From the NCBI GenBank assembly GCA_027482685.1, contig JAIXVU010000008.1, forward strand, positions 68,652 to 132,651: a stretch of DNA of 64,000 bases, written 5' to 3'. The number at the start of each line of letters is the position of its first letter. Positions within the stretch are counted from its first letter, which is position 1. Shown one piece after another: positions 54,157 to 63,941 of the stretch. Below the pieces are notes generated by a model, which saw only the letters and a list, made by a program, of their open reading frames with translations, had not been told where the DNA came from and did no database searches. The translations under genes were made by a program, and so were the position numbers. Source of the DNA: a bacterium (GTDB taxonomy: Bacteria; Patescibacteriota; Minisyncoccia; Phycocordibacterales; UBA5272).

Positions 54157-55245
54157 TTATTTTTGAGGAACTAGCTTCTTTAAGGCACATCCGATAGCTA
54201 CTGCATATGTTGGACCGACTTTTTGTATCATATCATGCAAAAAATCTGGCACGCTTATCTGGTCAAACGGTGTCGCTATCCTTCCTGGGATGTGCACCGT
54301 CTGATCATATGCACCGAGTAGCCCTGGGACTCTTGCTCCGCCTCCAACCAAAATTATTCCTTCTATCACTTGATTATACTTTTTTTCATACATCAAAGAT
54401 AGACGTGCGACCTCACCAAACAGTGGATAACTAGAAAGTTGCATCACATCCTTAAGATATGGATTAGATGCATCTCCTAAGTATCCGAAGCGACGTTTAG
54501 CTTCTTCAGCTGTTTCAATTGAAAGTGAAAGCGCCTTAGCTAGTTGTGCGGTGCTCTGTTGTGACCCCCTACTAATCACATGCATATCAAGTACAGTACT
54601 TTGGTATACAAGTGATAGTGTTGTAAACTGCGCTCCTATATCAACGTACAAAATCATTGCTTGTGTAAGTGGTGGACTGCTCCGCATAAGACTATATCCA
54701 GGTATTTCATAATCAACAGAAGTAAACTCAAGTTTTGTTGTTATTCTTTCGTAGAGATTAAGTGTATCGTTCTTAACAGCAGCGAGAACTACGTTCATCA
54801 TTCGTTCATCAACCTTTATCTCTGAACTATCCGGTATGTGCCACCAGTCCATCTGTACTTCGGTAAGCGGAACTGGAATATATTTCTTAGCTTCAAACGC
54901 CATCATTGTTTTTAGTTGAGTATCATCAACCTTTGGAACTTTAATGAGTGAGACGAATGCTCCTGACGGATCAATAGAAACAACTGCATTTTTTGCAGTT
55001 ATTTTTGCGGCAGCGAAAAGATCACGCATAACTTCTATGAACTTATCCTCCCCGAGGTGAGTGGTCTGGCCTGCAATAAGACCCATATAAGGACCGAGCT
55101 CAACCTCCCCATATGTGTCTAAAATAATCTTTTCTTTTTCGCGACGTAGCTGTACTACTTTTATAGATGACGAACCTATATCAATACCAATCGCTTGAGC
55201 AACATCCTCTTTTTTGAAAAAACTAAACATACTACTAGTATACAT
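54157..55245 (-). CDS. pilM: type IV pilus assembly ATPase-like protein PilM (actin fold)
   Basis: IGIDIGSSSIKVVQL at the N-terminus. 362 aa. Confidence 0.85.
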   Translation of the reverse strand: MYTSSMFSFFKKEDVAQAIGIDIGSSSIKVVQLRREKEKIILDTYGEVELGPYMGLIAGQTTHLGEDKFIEVMRDLFAAAKITAKNAVVSIDPSGAFVSLIKVPKVDDTQLKTMMAFEAKKYIPVPLTEVQMDWWHIPDSSEIKVDERMMNVVLAAVKNDTLNLYERITTKLEFTSVDYEIPGYSLMRSSPPLTQAMILYVDIGAQFTTLSLVYQSTVLDMHVISRGSQQSTAQLAKALSLSIETAEEAKRRFGYLGDASNPYLKDVMQLSSYPLFGEVARLSLMYEKKYNQVIEGIILVGGGARVPGLLGAYDQTVHIPGRIATPFDQISVPDFLHDMIQKVGPTYAVAIGCALKKLVPQK

Positions 55246-55283
55246 CGTTTAATGATATAGTTTATAGCGTATACACTTCTATT

Positions 55284-55913
55284 ATGTGGATGATACGTAA
55301 GACACTACAGTCACTAAGCAGCATACTCTTCCCACCTCTTTGCTATATATGTAAAAAAAGAGATGCGCTATTGTGTAGATCTTGCATCTCCTCACTTGCA
55401 CGCTCAATAGATACTGAGTCTTTATATATTTATAGTAGTTTTAGCTATCGTGACCCACATATAAAAAAAATTTTACACGCAATCAAGTACTTCCACAAAA
55501 AAGACTTACTTAATCCCCTAGCATTAGTACTTGCGGAAGATATGAAAAAACAAGGATACTCTGGACTACTAATTCCAGTGCCCATGTCTCCAGTGCGTAA
55601 ATACATACGTGGCTACAATCAAGCTGAAGAACTTACAAAAATACTCTCTCGTATAACTGGACTACCTTATGCTACCGGTATCCTTAAACGCTCACTCATA
55701 ACAAAACGGCAAGTAACAATGTCTACAAAGAAGGAAAGGCTACAAAATCCAAAGCGAACCTTTCACCTTACATCAAAAAAAGACATCTTAAAAAATAAAA
55801 ATATAATACTTGTTGATGATATAACAACAACAGGAGCAACACTTAGTGAAGCTCGTAGCATGTTACTTGGTGCGGGTGCGAAAAATGTGCAAGCAGTCAC
55901 GCTTGCACATTAA
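55284..55913 (+). CDS. comFC: ComF-family phosphoribosyltransferase (ComFC-like competence protein)
   Basis: Double zinc ribbon CYICKKRDALLCRSC. PRTase motif IILVDDITTTGATLSEA. Confidence 0.75.
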   Translation: MWMIRKTLQSLSSILFPPLCYICKKRDALLCRSCISSLARSIDTESLYIYSSFSYRDPHIKKILHAIKYFHKKDLLNPLALVLAEDMKKQGYSGLLIPVPMSPVRKYIRGYNQAEELTKILSRITGLPYATGILKRSLITKRQVTMSTKKERLQNPKRTFHLTSKKDILKNKNIILVDDITTTGATLSEARSMLLGAGAKNVQAVTLAH

Positions 55914-58460: not shown

Positions 58461-59966
58461 CTACGATAACGACCTTAAAAATATCACAGCTTTGTTTTTG
58501 TACTCATCTTTTTTCTCATTACTCATCTTGCCATATAGAACTCCAATAAATCCAAGCCTCCCCTCTTTTTGAAGTACCTCATAATGCTTCCCCACAAAAC
58601 TCCAAAAAAGTGCATCCCATACCTCTGACCAATCGCCTTTCTTGTAATCACTCATCTTTAGAATATAGTTTGAACCTGAGATATAGGGCTTCGTAGTAAT
58701 TATTCCTCCATCAGCATAGAGTGCCATACTATACACATTCGGTACCATCACCCAGTCATATGCATCAATATACATTTCCATGAACCACTTGTACACTTCA
58801 TGAGGCTTAAAACCACACAGATTCATAAAGTTCCCCATCACCATAAGTCGTTCAATATGATGTGAGTAGCCAGTATGTAGTACACCCTGTATCATATGAT
58901 CAATAGGTAGTATTCCTGTAGCCCCTGTCCAAAAACTTTTCGGAATATCTCGTGATGCACTAAAGTAATTCTTGCTACGTATAGTCTTCCCTTCGCGTAT
59001 ATAGATAGCACGCATGTATTCTCTCCATCCTATAATCTGCCTAATAAATCCTTCAAGCGATGCAATAGGCACATTATTATTTTGTGCATACTGTAATGTC
59101 TGTTGTACAACATACTCCGGTGTAAGTAACCCGATATTAAGTAATGGTGAGAGTACACTGTGAAATAGCAACCCGTGTTCTATAATCATTGCATCCTCAT
59201 ATGGCCCAAATGATGCGAGCTTCACTGAAAGAAACTCACTGAGCCACGCACGTGCTTCTGAATGTGTAACAGTGTAGAAGAATCCAGAGAGATCTCCATA
59301 GTTCTTGCTAAAATTTTTCTCTACATATTTTTTTGCTTCTATGACATGAGTAGTATCTGAAGGTTTTGGCAACTCTGGCAACAGTAACCCTTTCGGAACC
59401 TTTTTTCTATTCTCTGTGTCATAGCTCCAAGTACCACCAACAGGCGCACCATCCTTTTCTATTAAAATACCAAGTCGCTTACGTTGCCACTCATAAAAAT
59501 TTTTCATAAAGTACATACGTTTACCCTGCTCTCTATCAAAATATTCTGCAAGCATTGCCCTACTTGTTAGGAAAAGTGGTGTTTCCTCTATCGTGTACAA
59601 AATATTACTTTTACTGAGTGCCTGCGTGAGCCGTGTCTCTAACCAATCATCAACCACATCAAAAAAATGCACGTGCGTAATAGAATAACCTTCGAGAATC
59701 TTCACAATATCTCCAGTATTTTTTAATGCATGTGTCTCTATGTAATGAACTACATACCCTTGCGCTACAAGCATCTCTTCGTAGCACTTCATACTCGCAC
59801 GATGTAGTGTAAGTTTTTGTTTATGAAAAACATACTGCGTAAAAAACAACGGCTCCTCAATAAGAATAACCACTCGCTTAGGTGAAAGTAATATATTTTT
59901 CTCAAATAGCTGATGAGGGTAAATGAGAACTGCTTCCGTAATTCTTTCTATAGTACTCTTTGTCAT
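58461..59966 (-). CDS. cryptochrome/photolyase-family protein of the PhrB/FeS-BCP-related (COG3046-like) type, but with only 2 Cys, so no 4-Cys Fe-S ligand set
   Basis: 501 aa. FAD-domain analogues LSPLLNIGLL, IIGWREYMRAIY, HHIERLMVMGNF, IDAYDWVMVPNVYSMALYADGG. Confidence 0.65.
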   Translation of the reverse strand: MTKSTIERITEAVLIYPHQLFEKNILLSPKRVVILIEEPLFFTQYVFHKQKLTLHRASMKCYEEMLVAQGYVVHYIETHALKNTGDIVKILEGYSITHVHFFDVVDDWLETRLTQALSKSNILYTIEETPLFLTSRAMLAEYFDREQGKRMYFMKNFYEWQRKRLGILIEKDGAPVGGTWSYDTENRKKVPKGLLLPELPKPSDTTHVIEAKKYVEKNFSKNYGDLSGFFYTVTHSEARAWLSEFLSVKLASFGPYEDAMIIEHGLLFHSVLSPLLNIGLLTPEYVVQQTLQYAQNNNVPIASLEGFIRQIIGWREYMRAIYIREGKTIRSKNYFSASRDIPKSFWTGATGILPIDHMIQGVLHTGYSHHIERLMVMGNFMNLCGFKPHEVYKWFMEMYIDAYDWVMVPNVYSMALYADGGIITTKPYISGSNYILKMSDYKKGDWSEVWDALFWSFVGKHYEVLQKEGRLGFIGVLYGKMSNEKKDEYKNKAVIFLRSLS

Positions 59967-59972
59967 TTTTAT

Positions 59973-61100
59973 TTATAGATATAAATATGCTTCACATTTT
60001 TTCCAATACGACATAAATCCCCGTGGAACATGCGCAATCTCTGGAAACAGATACTCAGGTGAAGAGACTACACCTGGCCATCTTTCTAATGCAGGATGAC
60101 TTTTCCTGTATACACTTTTACCTATCGACCATTCCTTCAGTTCATCTAATGTACCAACCACAATATGAATGCTTGGTATATTCTTAGAAAGAGCACATAT
60201 AAATGCTATGCGTGCAGGGCTAACAGGAAACATAGTAAGTTCGTCTCTATCAATAAAAAGCACTTTTGTAGCTGGGGTATTTACAGGGTTCCATGTTGGG
60301 TCAAGTGTCCAGATGCTGTACAGCATATAACTATCTCCAGATAGCATATCTAAGGTACCTGTACTCTTAAATAACTCAAAATCCGTAGTAAGTGTAAACG
60401 GCACACCCTCCTCTAGCTCCTTAGGATCAAGCACCGTAAGGAGTGACGTGTCGACATCTAGATATGTATTGTTTTGGCGTACTGGAGAGAACTTATTGAT
60501 CATCTCTTGATTTGCAACATATTGTTTTGAACTAAATGTACCAGCAACCCATTGCCATGAGAGAGTGTTTGATGCCTTATCTCCATCTACAAGATAGTAG
60601 AACATATACCGACTCACATCCCACCAACTATAATGCCCGACATTTGTAGCGAGCATTGCTTGCCACATGCGAGCATGATTATGCATGTATCCAGTTGTAT
60701 AGAGACTCGCATACGCAGTATCTATTGCAATGATTCCTGTTGTAGCATCCACAAAAGCCTTCGGCACACCGTATCGCCTCACCCCAGTTTGCGGAGATTT
60801 AAGGTCTTTAAAAATTCTATCTTGCTCCTCAGTATACACCCTCTGAAAGAACTCTCTCCACGCAAGTTCAAAGATAAACGTATACGACTCTTTCACTGAG
60901 TACTTCTTAAGCACACTATCTCGCACATACGGAAGCGAGACAACCCCGTGTGTAAGATATGGTGAGATATGCGTGACGGCACCATCAATGTTATTTCTAC
61001 TTCGAGCGTAGTGTACTGGGTTGATAGATTCTAATCGTTCAATAATTTTCTGGTACTCTGTTGGGAAGGATGGAGGCATAATGACAAAATTAGTATACAC
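59973..61100 (-). CDS. photolyase FAD-binding-domain protein with atypical domain order: the canonical FAD domain is at the N-terminus, followed by a ~160-aa C-terminal alpha/beta-like domain. Starts at a GTG at 61100 or the ATG at 61079.
   Basis: HISPYLTHGVVS, ELAWREFF, TGIIAIDTAYASLYTTGYMHNHARMWQA, DGDKASNTLSWQWVAGT. There is no N-terminal photolyase alpha/beta domain. Confidence 0.65.
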   Translation of the reverse strand: MYTNFVIMPPSFPTEYQKIIERLESINPVHYARSRNNIDGAVTHISPYLTHGVVSLPYVRDSVLKKYSVKESYTFIFELAWREFFQRVYTEEQDRIFKDLKSPQTGVRRYGVPKAFVDATTGIIAIDTAYASLYTTGYMHNHARMWQAMLATNVGHYSWWDVSRYMFYYLVDGDKASNTLSWQWVAGTFSSKQYVANQEMINKFSPVRQNNTYLDVDTSLLTVLDPKELEEGVPFTLTTDFELFKSTGTLDMLSGDSYMLYSIWTLDPTWNPVNTPATKVLFIDRDELTMFPVSPARIAFICALSKNIPSIHIVVGTLDELKEWSIGKSVYRKSHPALERWPGVVSSPEYLFPEIAHVPRGFMSYWKKCEAYLYL

Positions 61101-61136
61101 AATTAAGGTAATAAATAAAAAACTACGATATATTTT

Positions 61137-62678
61137 TTAGTCTTCAGAAGTGGACATAGCTTCTTTCTTTAGCGTAGATATTTTTCTCGTTACCTTCGTA
61201 ACTCGTCTTTTTCGTGAACCATGTTTTATGTATACTTTTCTTGCTATTTCTTTACTCGAAGCTTTCTTGACTCCGAAGGTTTTAAGTTTGTGCAGTTTGC
61301 TGGCTTCTTTGAAGTTAACGATAGGACCTGGATATGCGCTTTGAGTTATTGTAAAAAGTGATACTTCCGGATATGCGAGGATATCCTCTATCTTTACATC
61401 TCGAAGTTCTGGTAGCCATTTTTTAACAAAGGTACAATTCGGATCTTGATCAAGAAGCTGCTTATGCGGACTATACACCCGTATTGTATTAATACCAATT
61501 ACCCCAGCTTGCATCTGCATCTGGCTCCAGTGGATACCAGGCTCATAATCCAAAAATATACTAGCAAGAAATCTCCCCACAAGACGCCAATCAAGATCAA
61601 GTCCAAACACTGCATAACTCACAAGAAGCGCCCTCATACGAAAATTAATAAATCCCGTTGTGCGCAAGCATCGTATACATGCATCAATAAGGACCTCTCC
61701 AGTCTGCCCAGCCATATACTTTTGGAAGAGCTCTTCATTATGTGTGTACTCTATCTGATTAAACTCACTATTAATAGCAGTAAGTGGCATCATACAATCA
61801 TCTTCAATACGCTGAACAAAATGCCCCCTCCAGTGAAGCCGCTCAGTAGCTGCAAGGAGTCCACTTTTCTTTTTCTTATCTTCGTGTACCTGTATCATGT
61901 TTGAAAATGTATGATGTATATATCTCACTGATAAGCTTCCGTAAGAAATAAACTGTGATAATCGTGACCCATGCAGAAGAGCACTATTTGGACTAGATAT
62001 GCCACCTCTATAGCCACCTACTCTTACATCAACAAATGATTGTAGAACCTTCATGCCACATTTTTCGGAGCATTTTTCGAGCTGATACTTTTTTCCTATG
62101 TTATTTTTTATACGTTCTAACGATGCTACTACGTTATCGACACCAAACTCTTTTGTAAGATCGATACTACTTACACTGCGTAGTCGTGGTATTGGCATTA
62201 TACTTGAGCTTAGGCACTCTCTTATAGACTGATTTCTTGTATCTCTGCTAGTAAGCCTCCTTACGATACCACTATGAGGAATTTGTATCCAAGATATAGC
62301 ATTCTCCTTGCAGAACCTTAGGATTCTTTTGTCTCTTCTATAGGTACCATATGTACCTGCTTCTTCATGACTTATGAGATATTGCACCTTTTCCTTGTTA
62401 TGTATTTTTTCTAAAAGATGTATAACACTTCCATGAAAAATAACTGGAGAAATACCATGGTGCATATAGTTATGATAAAGCGGCAGCATAGCACTCAAAA
62501 CTCCATACTGTTGAAACTCTGAGAATTCATACGATGTATCTTCGTTTTCTATGAGATCAGTCTCGAGTCCCATAATAGGAAGCATTGGCATATTTTCTTC
62601 TACACTTATGGCAACAGCTTTATGCAAAGCCTCATTATCATGAAGCCTAAAATCTCTTTTGTGAAAATAAATAATCAT
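61137..62678 (-). CDS. deoxyribodipyrimidine photolyase/cryptochrome-family protein (full length, N-terminal alpha/beta domain plus FAD domain) with a basic C-terminal tail
   Basis: MIIYFHKRDFRLHDNEAL. TGEVLIDACIRCLRTTGFINFRMRALLVSYAVFGL. DYEPGIHWSQMQMQAG. Confidence 0.75.
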   Translation of the reverse strand: MIIYFHKRDFRLHDNEALHKAVAISVEENMPMLPIMGLETDLIENEDTSYEFSEFQQYGVLSAMLPLYHNYMHHGISPVIFHGSVIHLLEKIHNKEKVQYLISHEEAGTYGTYRRDKRILRFCKENAISWIQIPHSGIVRRLTSRDTRNQSIRECLSSSIMPIPRLRSVSSIDLTKEFGVDNVVASLERIKNNIGKKYQLEKCSEKCGMKVLQSFVDVRVGGYRGGISSPNSALLHGSRLSQFISYGSLSVRYIHHTFSNMIQVHEDKKKKSGLLAATERLHWRGHFVQRIEDDCMMPLTAINSEFNQIEYTHNEELFQKYMAGQTGEVLIDACIRCLRTTGFINFRMRALLVSYAVFGLDLDWRLVGRFLASIFLDYEPGIHWSQMQMQAGVIGINTIRVYSPHKQLLDQDPNCTFVKKWLPELRDVKIEDILAYPEVSLFTITQSAYPGPIVNFKEASKLHKLKTFGVKKASSKEIARKVYIKHGSRKRRVTKVTRKISTLKKEAMSTSED

Positions 62679-62845
62679 AGCAATACTTATAATACTACCG
62701 TATCTTAAGCATAATGATAATCAAAAAAGACAGCTACTATACTAAGAAGTATATATAGAGAAGACAAGATTCTCTTATATATCACTCATCCACCGCTCAA
62801 CAAAAATGGCCACCTGGGTTCTAGGGTGGCGCATTTTTGTACAAG

Positions 62846-62932
62846 CGGAGAAAGTGGGATTCGAACCCACGGGGCTAATAAAAGCCCGACGGTTTAGTAA
62901 ACCGTTGATTTAAACCACTCATCCATTTCTCC
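62846..62932 (-). tRNA. type-II tRNA, Ser-like (G73 discriminator, long variable arm), with anticodon loop TTACTAA, i.e. apparent anticodon ACT
   Basis: Reverse complement GGAGAAATGGATGAGTGGTTTAAATCAACGGTTTACTAAACCGTCGGGCTTTTATTAGCCCCGTGGGTTCGAATCCCACTTTCTCCG. Confidence 0.6.
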
Positions 62933-63850: not shown

Positions 63851-63853
63851 TTG

Positions 63854-63941
63854 CGGAGACGATGAGATTCGAACTCATGAAGGTATTACTACCTTGCCTC
63901 GTTAGCAGTGAGGTGCCTTCGACCAGCTCAGCCACGTCTCC
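63854..63941 (-). tRNA. tRNA-Ser(GCT), type II
   Basis: Reverse complement GGAGACGTGGCTGAGCTGGTCGAAGGCACCTCACTGCTAACGAGGCAAGGTAGTAATACCTTCATGAGTTCGAATCTCATCGTCTCCG. Confidence 0.8.

Follow-up and report, generated by a model that had tools for sequence, protein, structure and literature searches.

Bacterial photolyases that start directly with their catalytic domain have been described under two names. NewPHL proteins (Emmerich et al. 2020, NAR 48:12845, PMC7736829) can be as short as about 300 aa, carry the catalytic flavin adenine dinucleotide (FAD) domain at the N-terminus and have no antenna domain. Two of them, DsNewPHL (A8LJA9) and MmNewPHL (M7YZC8), bind FAD only, and repair cyclobutane pyrimidine dimers (CPDs) in single-stranded DNA only (PMC7736829). 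The short photolyase-like proteins (SPL; Xu et al. 2021, MBE 38:4505, PMC8476157) are the same class, an identity stated in that paper. Here we describe a gene of this class inside a cluster of photolyase-family genes from a bacterium of the phylum Patescibacteriota (lineage UBA5272). The cluster lies in a stretch of 64,000 nucleotides, hereafter the window (contig JAIXVU010000008.1 of GenBank assembly GCA_027482685.1, positions 68,652 to 132,651). Three adjacent photolyase-family open reading frames (ORFs), g1, g2 and g3 in reading direction, are all found on the minus strand (Table 1). Together with their Pfam domains, they bear out the tandem triplet reported by a sequence-only reading of this DNA. 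A fourth photolyase-family gene was not found within the window. We consider it highly probable that this is a light-dependent DNA-repair/photoreceptor cluster, whose three members belong to prokaryotic branches of the photolyase/cryptochrome superfamily that were known before.

Judged by its sequence, the middle gene, g2, is a NewPHL/SPL gene, closest to the Bacteroidetes-type subgroup. The only Pfam match in its product is PF03441, at residues 75-212 (GTG numbering; 2.9e-21), comparable to residues 78-212 in DsNewPHL and 76-212 in MmNewPHL (PMC7736829). The last ~160 aa are unmatched, and PF00875 and PF04244, the antenna-type domains of its neighbors, are absent; the antenna domain is missing in the two published proteins as well. 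Its 368 aa fit the NewPHL/SPL length range of about 250-405 aa. The ordered C-terminal Z-domain of the class, about 150 aa long, is matched by ~130-150 aa in the AlphaFold2 (AF2) model of g2. The sequence-only reading knew of no described family of photolyases with the FAD domain in first place. That view is superseded, since such proteins were published as NewPHL in 2020 (PMC7736829) and as SPL in 2021 (PMC8476157).

The catalytic domain of g2 retains the residues expected of a CPD photolyase. The motifs WREFF, TGYMHNHARM and SWQWVAGT, already picked out from the sequence, are present and map onto catalytic residues of the photolyase from Escherichia coli K-12, which served as numbering reference for the active-site mapping (Ec positions). 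E71, W74, N134 and R137 correspond to EcE274, W277, N341 and R344, and are invariant in 60 homologs. M138, D165, N171 and W177 correspond to EcM345, D372, N378 and W384; the methionine is found in 59 of the 60 homologs, and the other three are invariant. All eight positions are conserved in NewPHL/SPL, and g2 keeps all of them. The electron-transfer triad is shortened. The proximal (W175, equivalent to EcW382) and medial (W152, equivalent to EcW359) tryptophans are present in 59/60 and 58/60 homologs, while the distal EcW306 position is occupied by P96, is variable, and has no tryptophan. According to both founding papers, NewPHL/SPL proteins likewise keep only the proximal and medial tryptophans. 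From these residues we infer cofactor binding and substrate specificity: the N-terminal all-alpha domain would bind FAD, the FAD would be photoreduced through the two-tryptophan chain (W175, W152), and the enzyme would split CPDs in the conserved E71/W74/N134/M138/W177 pocket.

A second line of evidence comes from the relatives of g2. BLASTP of g2 against WP_011536985.1 (410 aa) of Ruegeria sp. TM1040 gave E=3e-26, with 32% identity over 246 aa of the FAD domain. In this protein, which belongs to the Roseobacter group and was retrieved from a plasmid collection, each catalytic residue is offset by +2 from its DsNewPHL position, and the sequence literally reads GFF near the C-terminus, at the place where g2 has GFM. 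The closest named genomes with g2 homologs are metagenome-assembled genomes (MAGs) of Paceibacterota and Nomurabacteria (50-54% identity); many Bacteroidota come next, at 38-45%. None of the species named in the NewPHL/SPL papers was among the g2 matches in the search of genome contigs, where a Paceibacterota MAG was the best match (54%). According to Xu et al. (PMC8476157), SPL is divided into the subgroups A, C, Be, Ba and Ac, and four iron-sulfur (Fe-S) cysteines are found in C and Ac only. The only cysteines of g2, C292 and C362, are both located in the Z-domain, outside the four-cysteine region of the catalytic domain, and a placement in C or Ac was therefore rejected. The lack of the cluster is shared with subgroups A, Ba and Be, and the closest resemblance of g2 is to Ba, the subgroup from Bacteroidetes (CmSPL). 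A further likeness is the adjacent prokaryotic (6-4) photolyase gene, as in SPL; in Cyclobacterium marinum, the SPL gene is predicted to form an operon with an FeS-BCP gene (PMC8476157).

A photolyase without N-terminal domain between two full-length paralogs is a priori odd, and one could suspect g2 of being an assembly chimera, a frameshifted piece of a neighboring gene, or a pseudogene. This is hardly conceivable, because of the breadth of its homologs, its recovery in three assemblies and the clean sequence of the junction. The databases hold more than 5,800 g2 homologs, the best 120 of which are 359-395 aa long with a query coverage of 94-99%. In the alignment, homologs begin at the same point as g2, and some in other genomes stand alone beside unrelated genes. 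The exact 368-aa protein, in the same order of genes encoding 513, 368 and 501 aa, was found in three Logan assemblies, which are independent and derive from different sequencing runs. Upstream, g1 keeps a full-length C-terminus and ends at a clean TAA, followed by an AT-rich spacer of 57 nt to the g2 ATG. The full-length g2 model (AF2, alignment of 62 sequences) reached a predicted local distance difference test (pLDDT) of 96.1 and a predicted template modeling score (pTM) of 0.93. Finally, the FAD domains of g2 and g3 are only 23% identical, and between g2 and g1 there is no significant match. An assembly artefact or frameshift at 61100/61137, which the sequence-only reading had named as a check on its interpretation, is thus excluded.

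The same reading had seen an FAD domain followed by an alpha/beta-like segment, and this part of it holds: behind the FAD domain, g2 has a folded alpha/beta segment of ~130-160 aa, modeled with a pLDDT of 94.1 when isolated. DSSP on the AF2 models assigns strands to residues 250-254, 271-277, 305-309 and 322-325, and helices to 278-283, 288-298, 311-317 and 355-363. The high pTM suggests that in the model the Z-domain is packed onto the catalytic domain. Near its end lies the motif G-F-M-S-Y-W, in which F355 and W359 do not vary among 62 sequences; the family consensus is SF(F/M)S(Y/F)WKK. Emmerich et al. (PMC7736829) describe a "GFF motif plus one Trp" for this domain, to be compared with (G/S)F(F/M)xxW in the g2 family.

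The proposed resemblance of this segment to the N-terminal domain of PhrB found no support. It had led to the idea that circular permutation or a domain swap turned a two-domain photolyase into g2, with the Z-domain as a reduced and displaced antenna (Rossmann/HUP-like) domain. This idea concerns the evolutionary origin and is compatible with the membership of g2 in NewPHL. The inverted topology and a domain-swap scenario were already discussed in both founding papers (PMC7736829, PMC8476157), and the swap is the less favored of the two scenarios in Emmerich et al. Foldseek of the isolated Z-domain against the PDB gave no significant match (best E-value 0.22), and none of the top 50 hits was a photolyase; the only noteworthy alpha/beta matches, to PPAT and a universal stress protein, had TM scores of 0.33-0.37. 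A Pfam scan of the domain returned nothing relevant even at E<=10. A profile built from the Z-domain only, searched against 1.84 billion cluster representatives, matched 294 proteins. Among the 150 matches listed, all were at the C-termini of NewPHL-type proteins of ~355-460 aa or in fragments, and none was at the N-terminus of a photolyase-sized protein. With hhalign, the probabilities for the Z-domain profile against the N-domains of g1 and g3 were below 1%, in a test that had no power, since the profiles were shallow and a genuine N-domain pair, g1 against g3, failed as well (0.7%). According to Emmerich et al. (PMC7736829), the order of secondary-structure elements in the Z-domain is also unlike a Rossmann fold. 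Taken together, we regard a permuted origin as unlikely.

The question matters for the whole superfamily. Both founding papers favor NewPHL/SPL as its single-domain ancestor (PMC7736829, PMC8476157). Were the Z-domain a permuted antenna remnant, for which we see a rather small chance, NewPHL/SPL would have arisen from a two-domain photolyase instead. The fold of the domain was unknown in 2020; it now has a high-confidence predicted structure, with no detectable relative and no solved structure covering it in the PDB. Structural comparison of this model could decide between the "ancestral" and the "domain-swap" origin.

The downstream gene, g3, most likely encodes a prokaryotic (6-4) photolyase of the type without Fe-S cluster. 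Pfam assigns PF04244 (DPRP; 8.4e-54) and a weak PF03441 match. The protein aligns end to end with SePhrB (PDB 8ijy; 6e-90) and PhrB (PDB 4dja; 1.4e-79), and the alignment with PhrB is ungapped through the catalytic core at an offset of +4. The catalytic H365/H366 of PhrB (H369/H370 in g3), the lesion-site Y424/Y430 (Y428/Y434), W342 (W346) and W390 (W394) are kept. Further changes are Y391 to F395 and E403 to M407. Of the four Fe-S ligands of PhrB, C350 is replaced by P354, C438 and C441 are lost in a 10-residue deletion, and C454 is replaced by Glu. With all four ligands gone, and neither of its two cysteines at a ligand position, g3 cannot bind the cluster, as the sequence-only reading had concluded from the cysteine count. 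Its closest homologs share the loss. Among 120 of them, cysteine is absent at the three ligand columns that were fully tabulated, and at the fourth in at least 92; the deletion is common to 115 of them. An assignment to Fe-S-containing FeS-BCP was thus rejected, as g3 lacks the four cysteines (C350, C438, C441, C454) that define FeS-BCP/CryPro in the strict sense.

Such proteins are already known. Subgroup M of the prokaryotic 6-4 photolyases, which includes PromaPL of P. marinus, is without the four cysteines (Xu et al. 2022, NAR 50:5757, PMC9178010). The DPRP N-domain, the homology to PhrB and SePhrB, and the missing cysteines liken g3 to this subgroup, with PromaPL compared by its description. 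In subgroups outside ABG, the E403 position is typically occupied by Met, and the electron-transfer chain is as a rule incomplete (PMC9178010); g3 shares the Met with SePhrB and most non-ABG members.

Instead of repair enzymes, g2 and/or g3 could mainly be blue-light photoreceptors or regulators. Regulatory functions are known from RsCryB, which is related to g3 (PMC9178010), the Ruegeria homolog of g2 adjoins PAS and response-regulator genes, and Xu et al. (PMC8476157) report a weak activity of RfSPL and speculate that C-terminal extensions give cryptochrome-like roles. Against this stands that every CPD-binding residue is kept in the g2 family, either invariant or in 59/60 homologs, which argues for selection on substrate binding. 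Moreover, g3 retains the catalytic His-His pair, and CPD repair in vitro is known for two NewPHLs and one SPL (PMC7736829, PMC8476157). A mainly photoreceptive role of g2 or g3 is therefore very unlikely, and we continue to read both as photolyase genes.

The first gene, g1, has the two-domain architecture for which the sequence-only reading called it canonical, with PF00875 (2.8e-10) and PF03441 (3.9e-44). The description does not extend to the active site, where residues are substituted. With respect to E. coli photolyase, EcE274 is replaced by R280, N341 by F346, M345 by A350, N378 by H383, W382 by M387 and W384 by M389. Across 57 homologs, the R, the F, the H and the M in place of W384 do not vary; M345 is replaced by A or S, and at W382 the homologs have I, L, V or M. 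None of the NCBIfam photolyase/cryptochrome models scored above its curated cut-off for g1, g2 or g3. For g1, the scores were 108 against a cut-off of 884.6 (TIGR03556), 90.5 against 506 (NF007955) and 116 against 317 (TIGR02765). These scores and the active-site substitutions speak against a functional class I CPD photolyase or DASH protein, and this reading of g1 was rejected; the sequence indicates that g1 is probably not a CPD repair enzyme.

Instead, g1 resembles NewCRY, with VcCry2 as representative, a group formerly annotated as CPD photolyases that lacks E274 and N341, and for which a signaling role was suggested (PMC7736829). It shares with NewCRY the two-domain architecture, the lack of EcE274 and EcN341, the pipeline annotation as CPD photolyase, and the presence alongside NewPHL; VcCry2 was compared by description. 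In the published surveys, the overlap with NewPHL is 14% for NewCRY and 36% for the DASH-like group (PMC7736829, PMC8476157). NewCRY is apparently the same as the "DASH-like" or prokaryote-specific group of Xu et al. (2021), an equation made here and stated by neither paper. The changes of N378 to H, W382 to M/I/L/V and W384 to M, and the motif DYEPGIHWSQMQMQAG, go beyond the substitutions described for NewCRY in the available text.

At residues 377-392 of g1, the FAD/substrate motif DGDLAANNGGWQWAAS is replaced by DYEPGIHWSQMQMQAG, as throughout the g1 family. The histidine in this family stands at the EcN378 position, which we take to be the residue facing N5 of FAD. Together with the methionine at the W384 position, its conservation in the 57 homologs and in seven syntenic genes of other phyla suggests a distinct, conserved flavin environment.

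The pairing of these genes recurs in other genomes. We compared 80 related loci from reference genomes, within 5 kb around the NewPHL gene. A g3-like gene was found in this range at 46 of the 80 loci, on the same strand in 42. Genes similar to g1 were found near the NewPHL gene at eight loci, from Bacteroidota, Gracilibacteria and a gammaproteobacterial MAG, and all three gene types occurred together at three. The full R/F/H/M signature, over all 11 mapped positions, is present in seven of the eight syntenic g1-like genes. The remaining one (locus L076) is a partial match in which only the first two sites are covered, and both are kept. By position, R280 is found in 8/8 and F346 in 7/8. A plasmid of a cultured member of the Cytophagales also carries a NewPHL gene followed by a cryptochrome/photolyase-family gene.

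Some of these loci show additional features. In the nearest relatives (L004, 7127-7333; L005, 4825-4971), a gene for a 48-68-aa DUF2256 protein (PF10013) separates the NewPHL gene from the DPRP gene, whose start it overlaps. It is absent from the window, where the g2 stop and the g3 ATG are 6 nt apart. On the megaplasmid of Ruegeria sp. TM1040 (L089, 1110-5218), the NewPHL gene is divergent from adjacent genes for two response regulators and a protein with a PAS domain, and a kinase gene of the AarF/ABC1/UbiB type comes after it; these neighbors may hint at light-linked regulation. In a MAG labeled Synechococcus sp. UW140 (L039), a g2-like (41%) and a g3-like (47%) gene are of the Bacteroidota/Patescibacteria type and not of the Cys-containing cyanobacterial SPL subgroup. 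This pair may reflect binning contamination or horizontal transfer.

Several points weigh against our reading of the cluster. The C-terminal motif of g2 is G-F-M instead of the G-F-F of NewPHL. Its membership in NewPHL is drawn from the published defining features and the Ruegeria homolog, and not from a reference tree, and NewPHL members of the Bacteroidota/Patescibacteria type are known from their genes alone. No sequence similarity was detected between the Z-domain of g2 and that of the subgroup-A member from Ruegeria: a hidden Markov model of the g2-family Z-domain scored the C-terminus of this protein no better than 2,000 shuffles, so that this profile does not support Z-domain homology across subgroups. 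This result is in line with the poor conservation of the domain reported by Emmerich et al. (PMC7736829). At the level of transcription, a scan for promoters returned no more sites than in shuffled sequence, and the operon structure is suggested by the gene spacing only.

The coordinates of the features are collected in Table 1. The likely start of g2 is the ATG at 61079, where its homologs and the gene call in the database begin as well. Upstream of the cluster, the GC-rich hairpin GCCACCTGGGTTCTAGGGTGGC separates a tRNA-Ser(ACU) from g1, and is likely a bidirectional terminator between the tRNA and the photolyase genes, as judged by its consensus features. In this case the cluster would own a promoter within 62679-62808, and from the spacing we infer that its genes may be co-transcribed.

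Table 1. Features of the photolyase gene cluster, in coordinates of the window
Feature	Position	Strand	Description
g1	61137..62678	-	513 aa; two-domain, NewCRY ("DASH-like", prokaryote-specific) type; basic C-terminal tail
g2	59973..61079	-	368-aa NewPHL/SPL short photolyase; maximal ORF from GTG 61100 would be 375 aa
g2, all-alpha FAD-binding/catalytic domain and linker	60375..61079	-	residues 1-235, ATG numbering
g2, C-terminal Z-domain	59976..60374	-	residues 236-368; compact alpha/beta unit, G-F-M-S-Y-W motif at the end
g3	58461..59966	-	501 aa; prokaryotic (6-4) photolyase, Fe-S-free type, consistent with "subgroup M"
Hairpin with T-runs on both strands	62809..62830		between tRNA-Ser and g1; consensus match only

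Outside of the cluster, the tRNA-Ser directly upstream of g1 (62845-62932, minus strand) has the anticodon ACU, with A at position 34. To our knowledge, A34 is unusual in bacterial tRNAs apart from tRNA-Arg(ACG). A second tRNA-Ser (GCU) is found at 63853-63941 (minus strand). Judged from the translations, two genes in the region 54157-55913 appear to encode proteins of 362 aa, similar to the type IV pilus assembly protein PilM, and of 209 aa, similar to ComF phosphoribosyltransferases. Together with the taxonomy of the nearest homologs, they are in keeping with a genome from Patescibacteria.

Little of this is new as far as the single parts are concerned: all three gene types, as well as an operon of NewPHL and 6-4 photolyase genes, are found in the literature of 2020-2022. 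What is new is the presence of the NewPHL/SPL class, in an apparently compact three-gene cluster, in Patescibacteria with probably small genomes, a phylum missing from the lists of both founding papers (PMC7736829, PMC8476157). This suggests that Patescibacteria with such a cluster invest in photorepair. New is also that a NewCRY-type gene, with a near-fixed alternative active-site signature (R/F/H/M), recurs beside NewPHL in several phyla. Its recurrence links the NewCRY-type protein to the photorepair genes.

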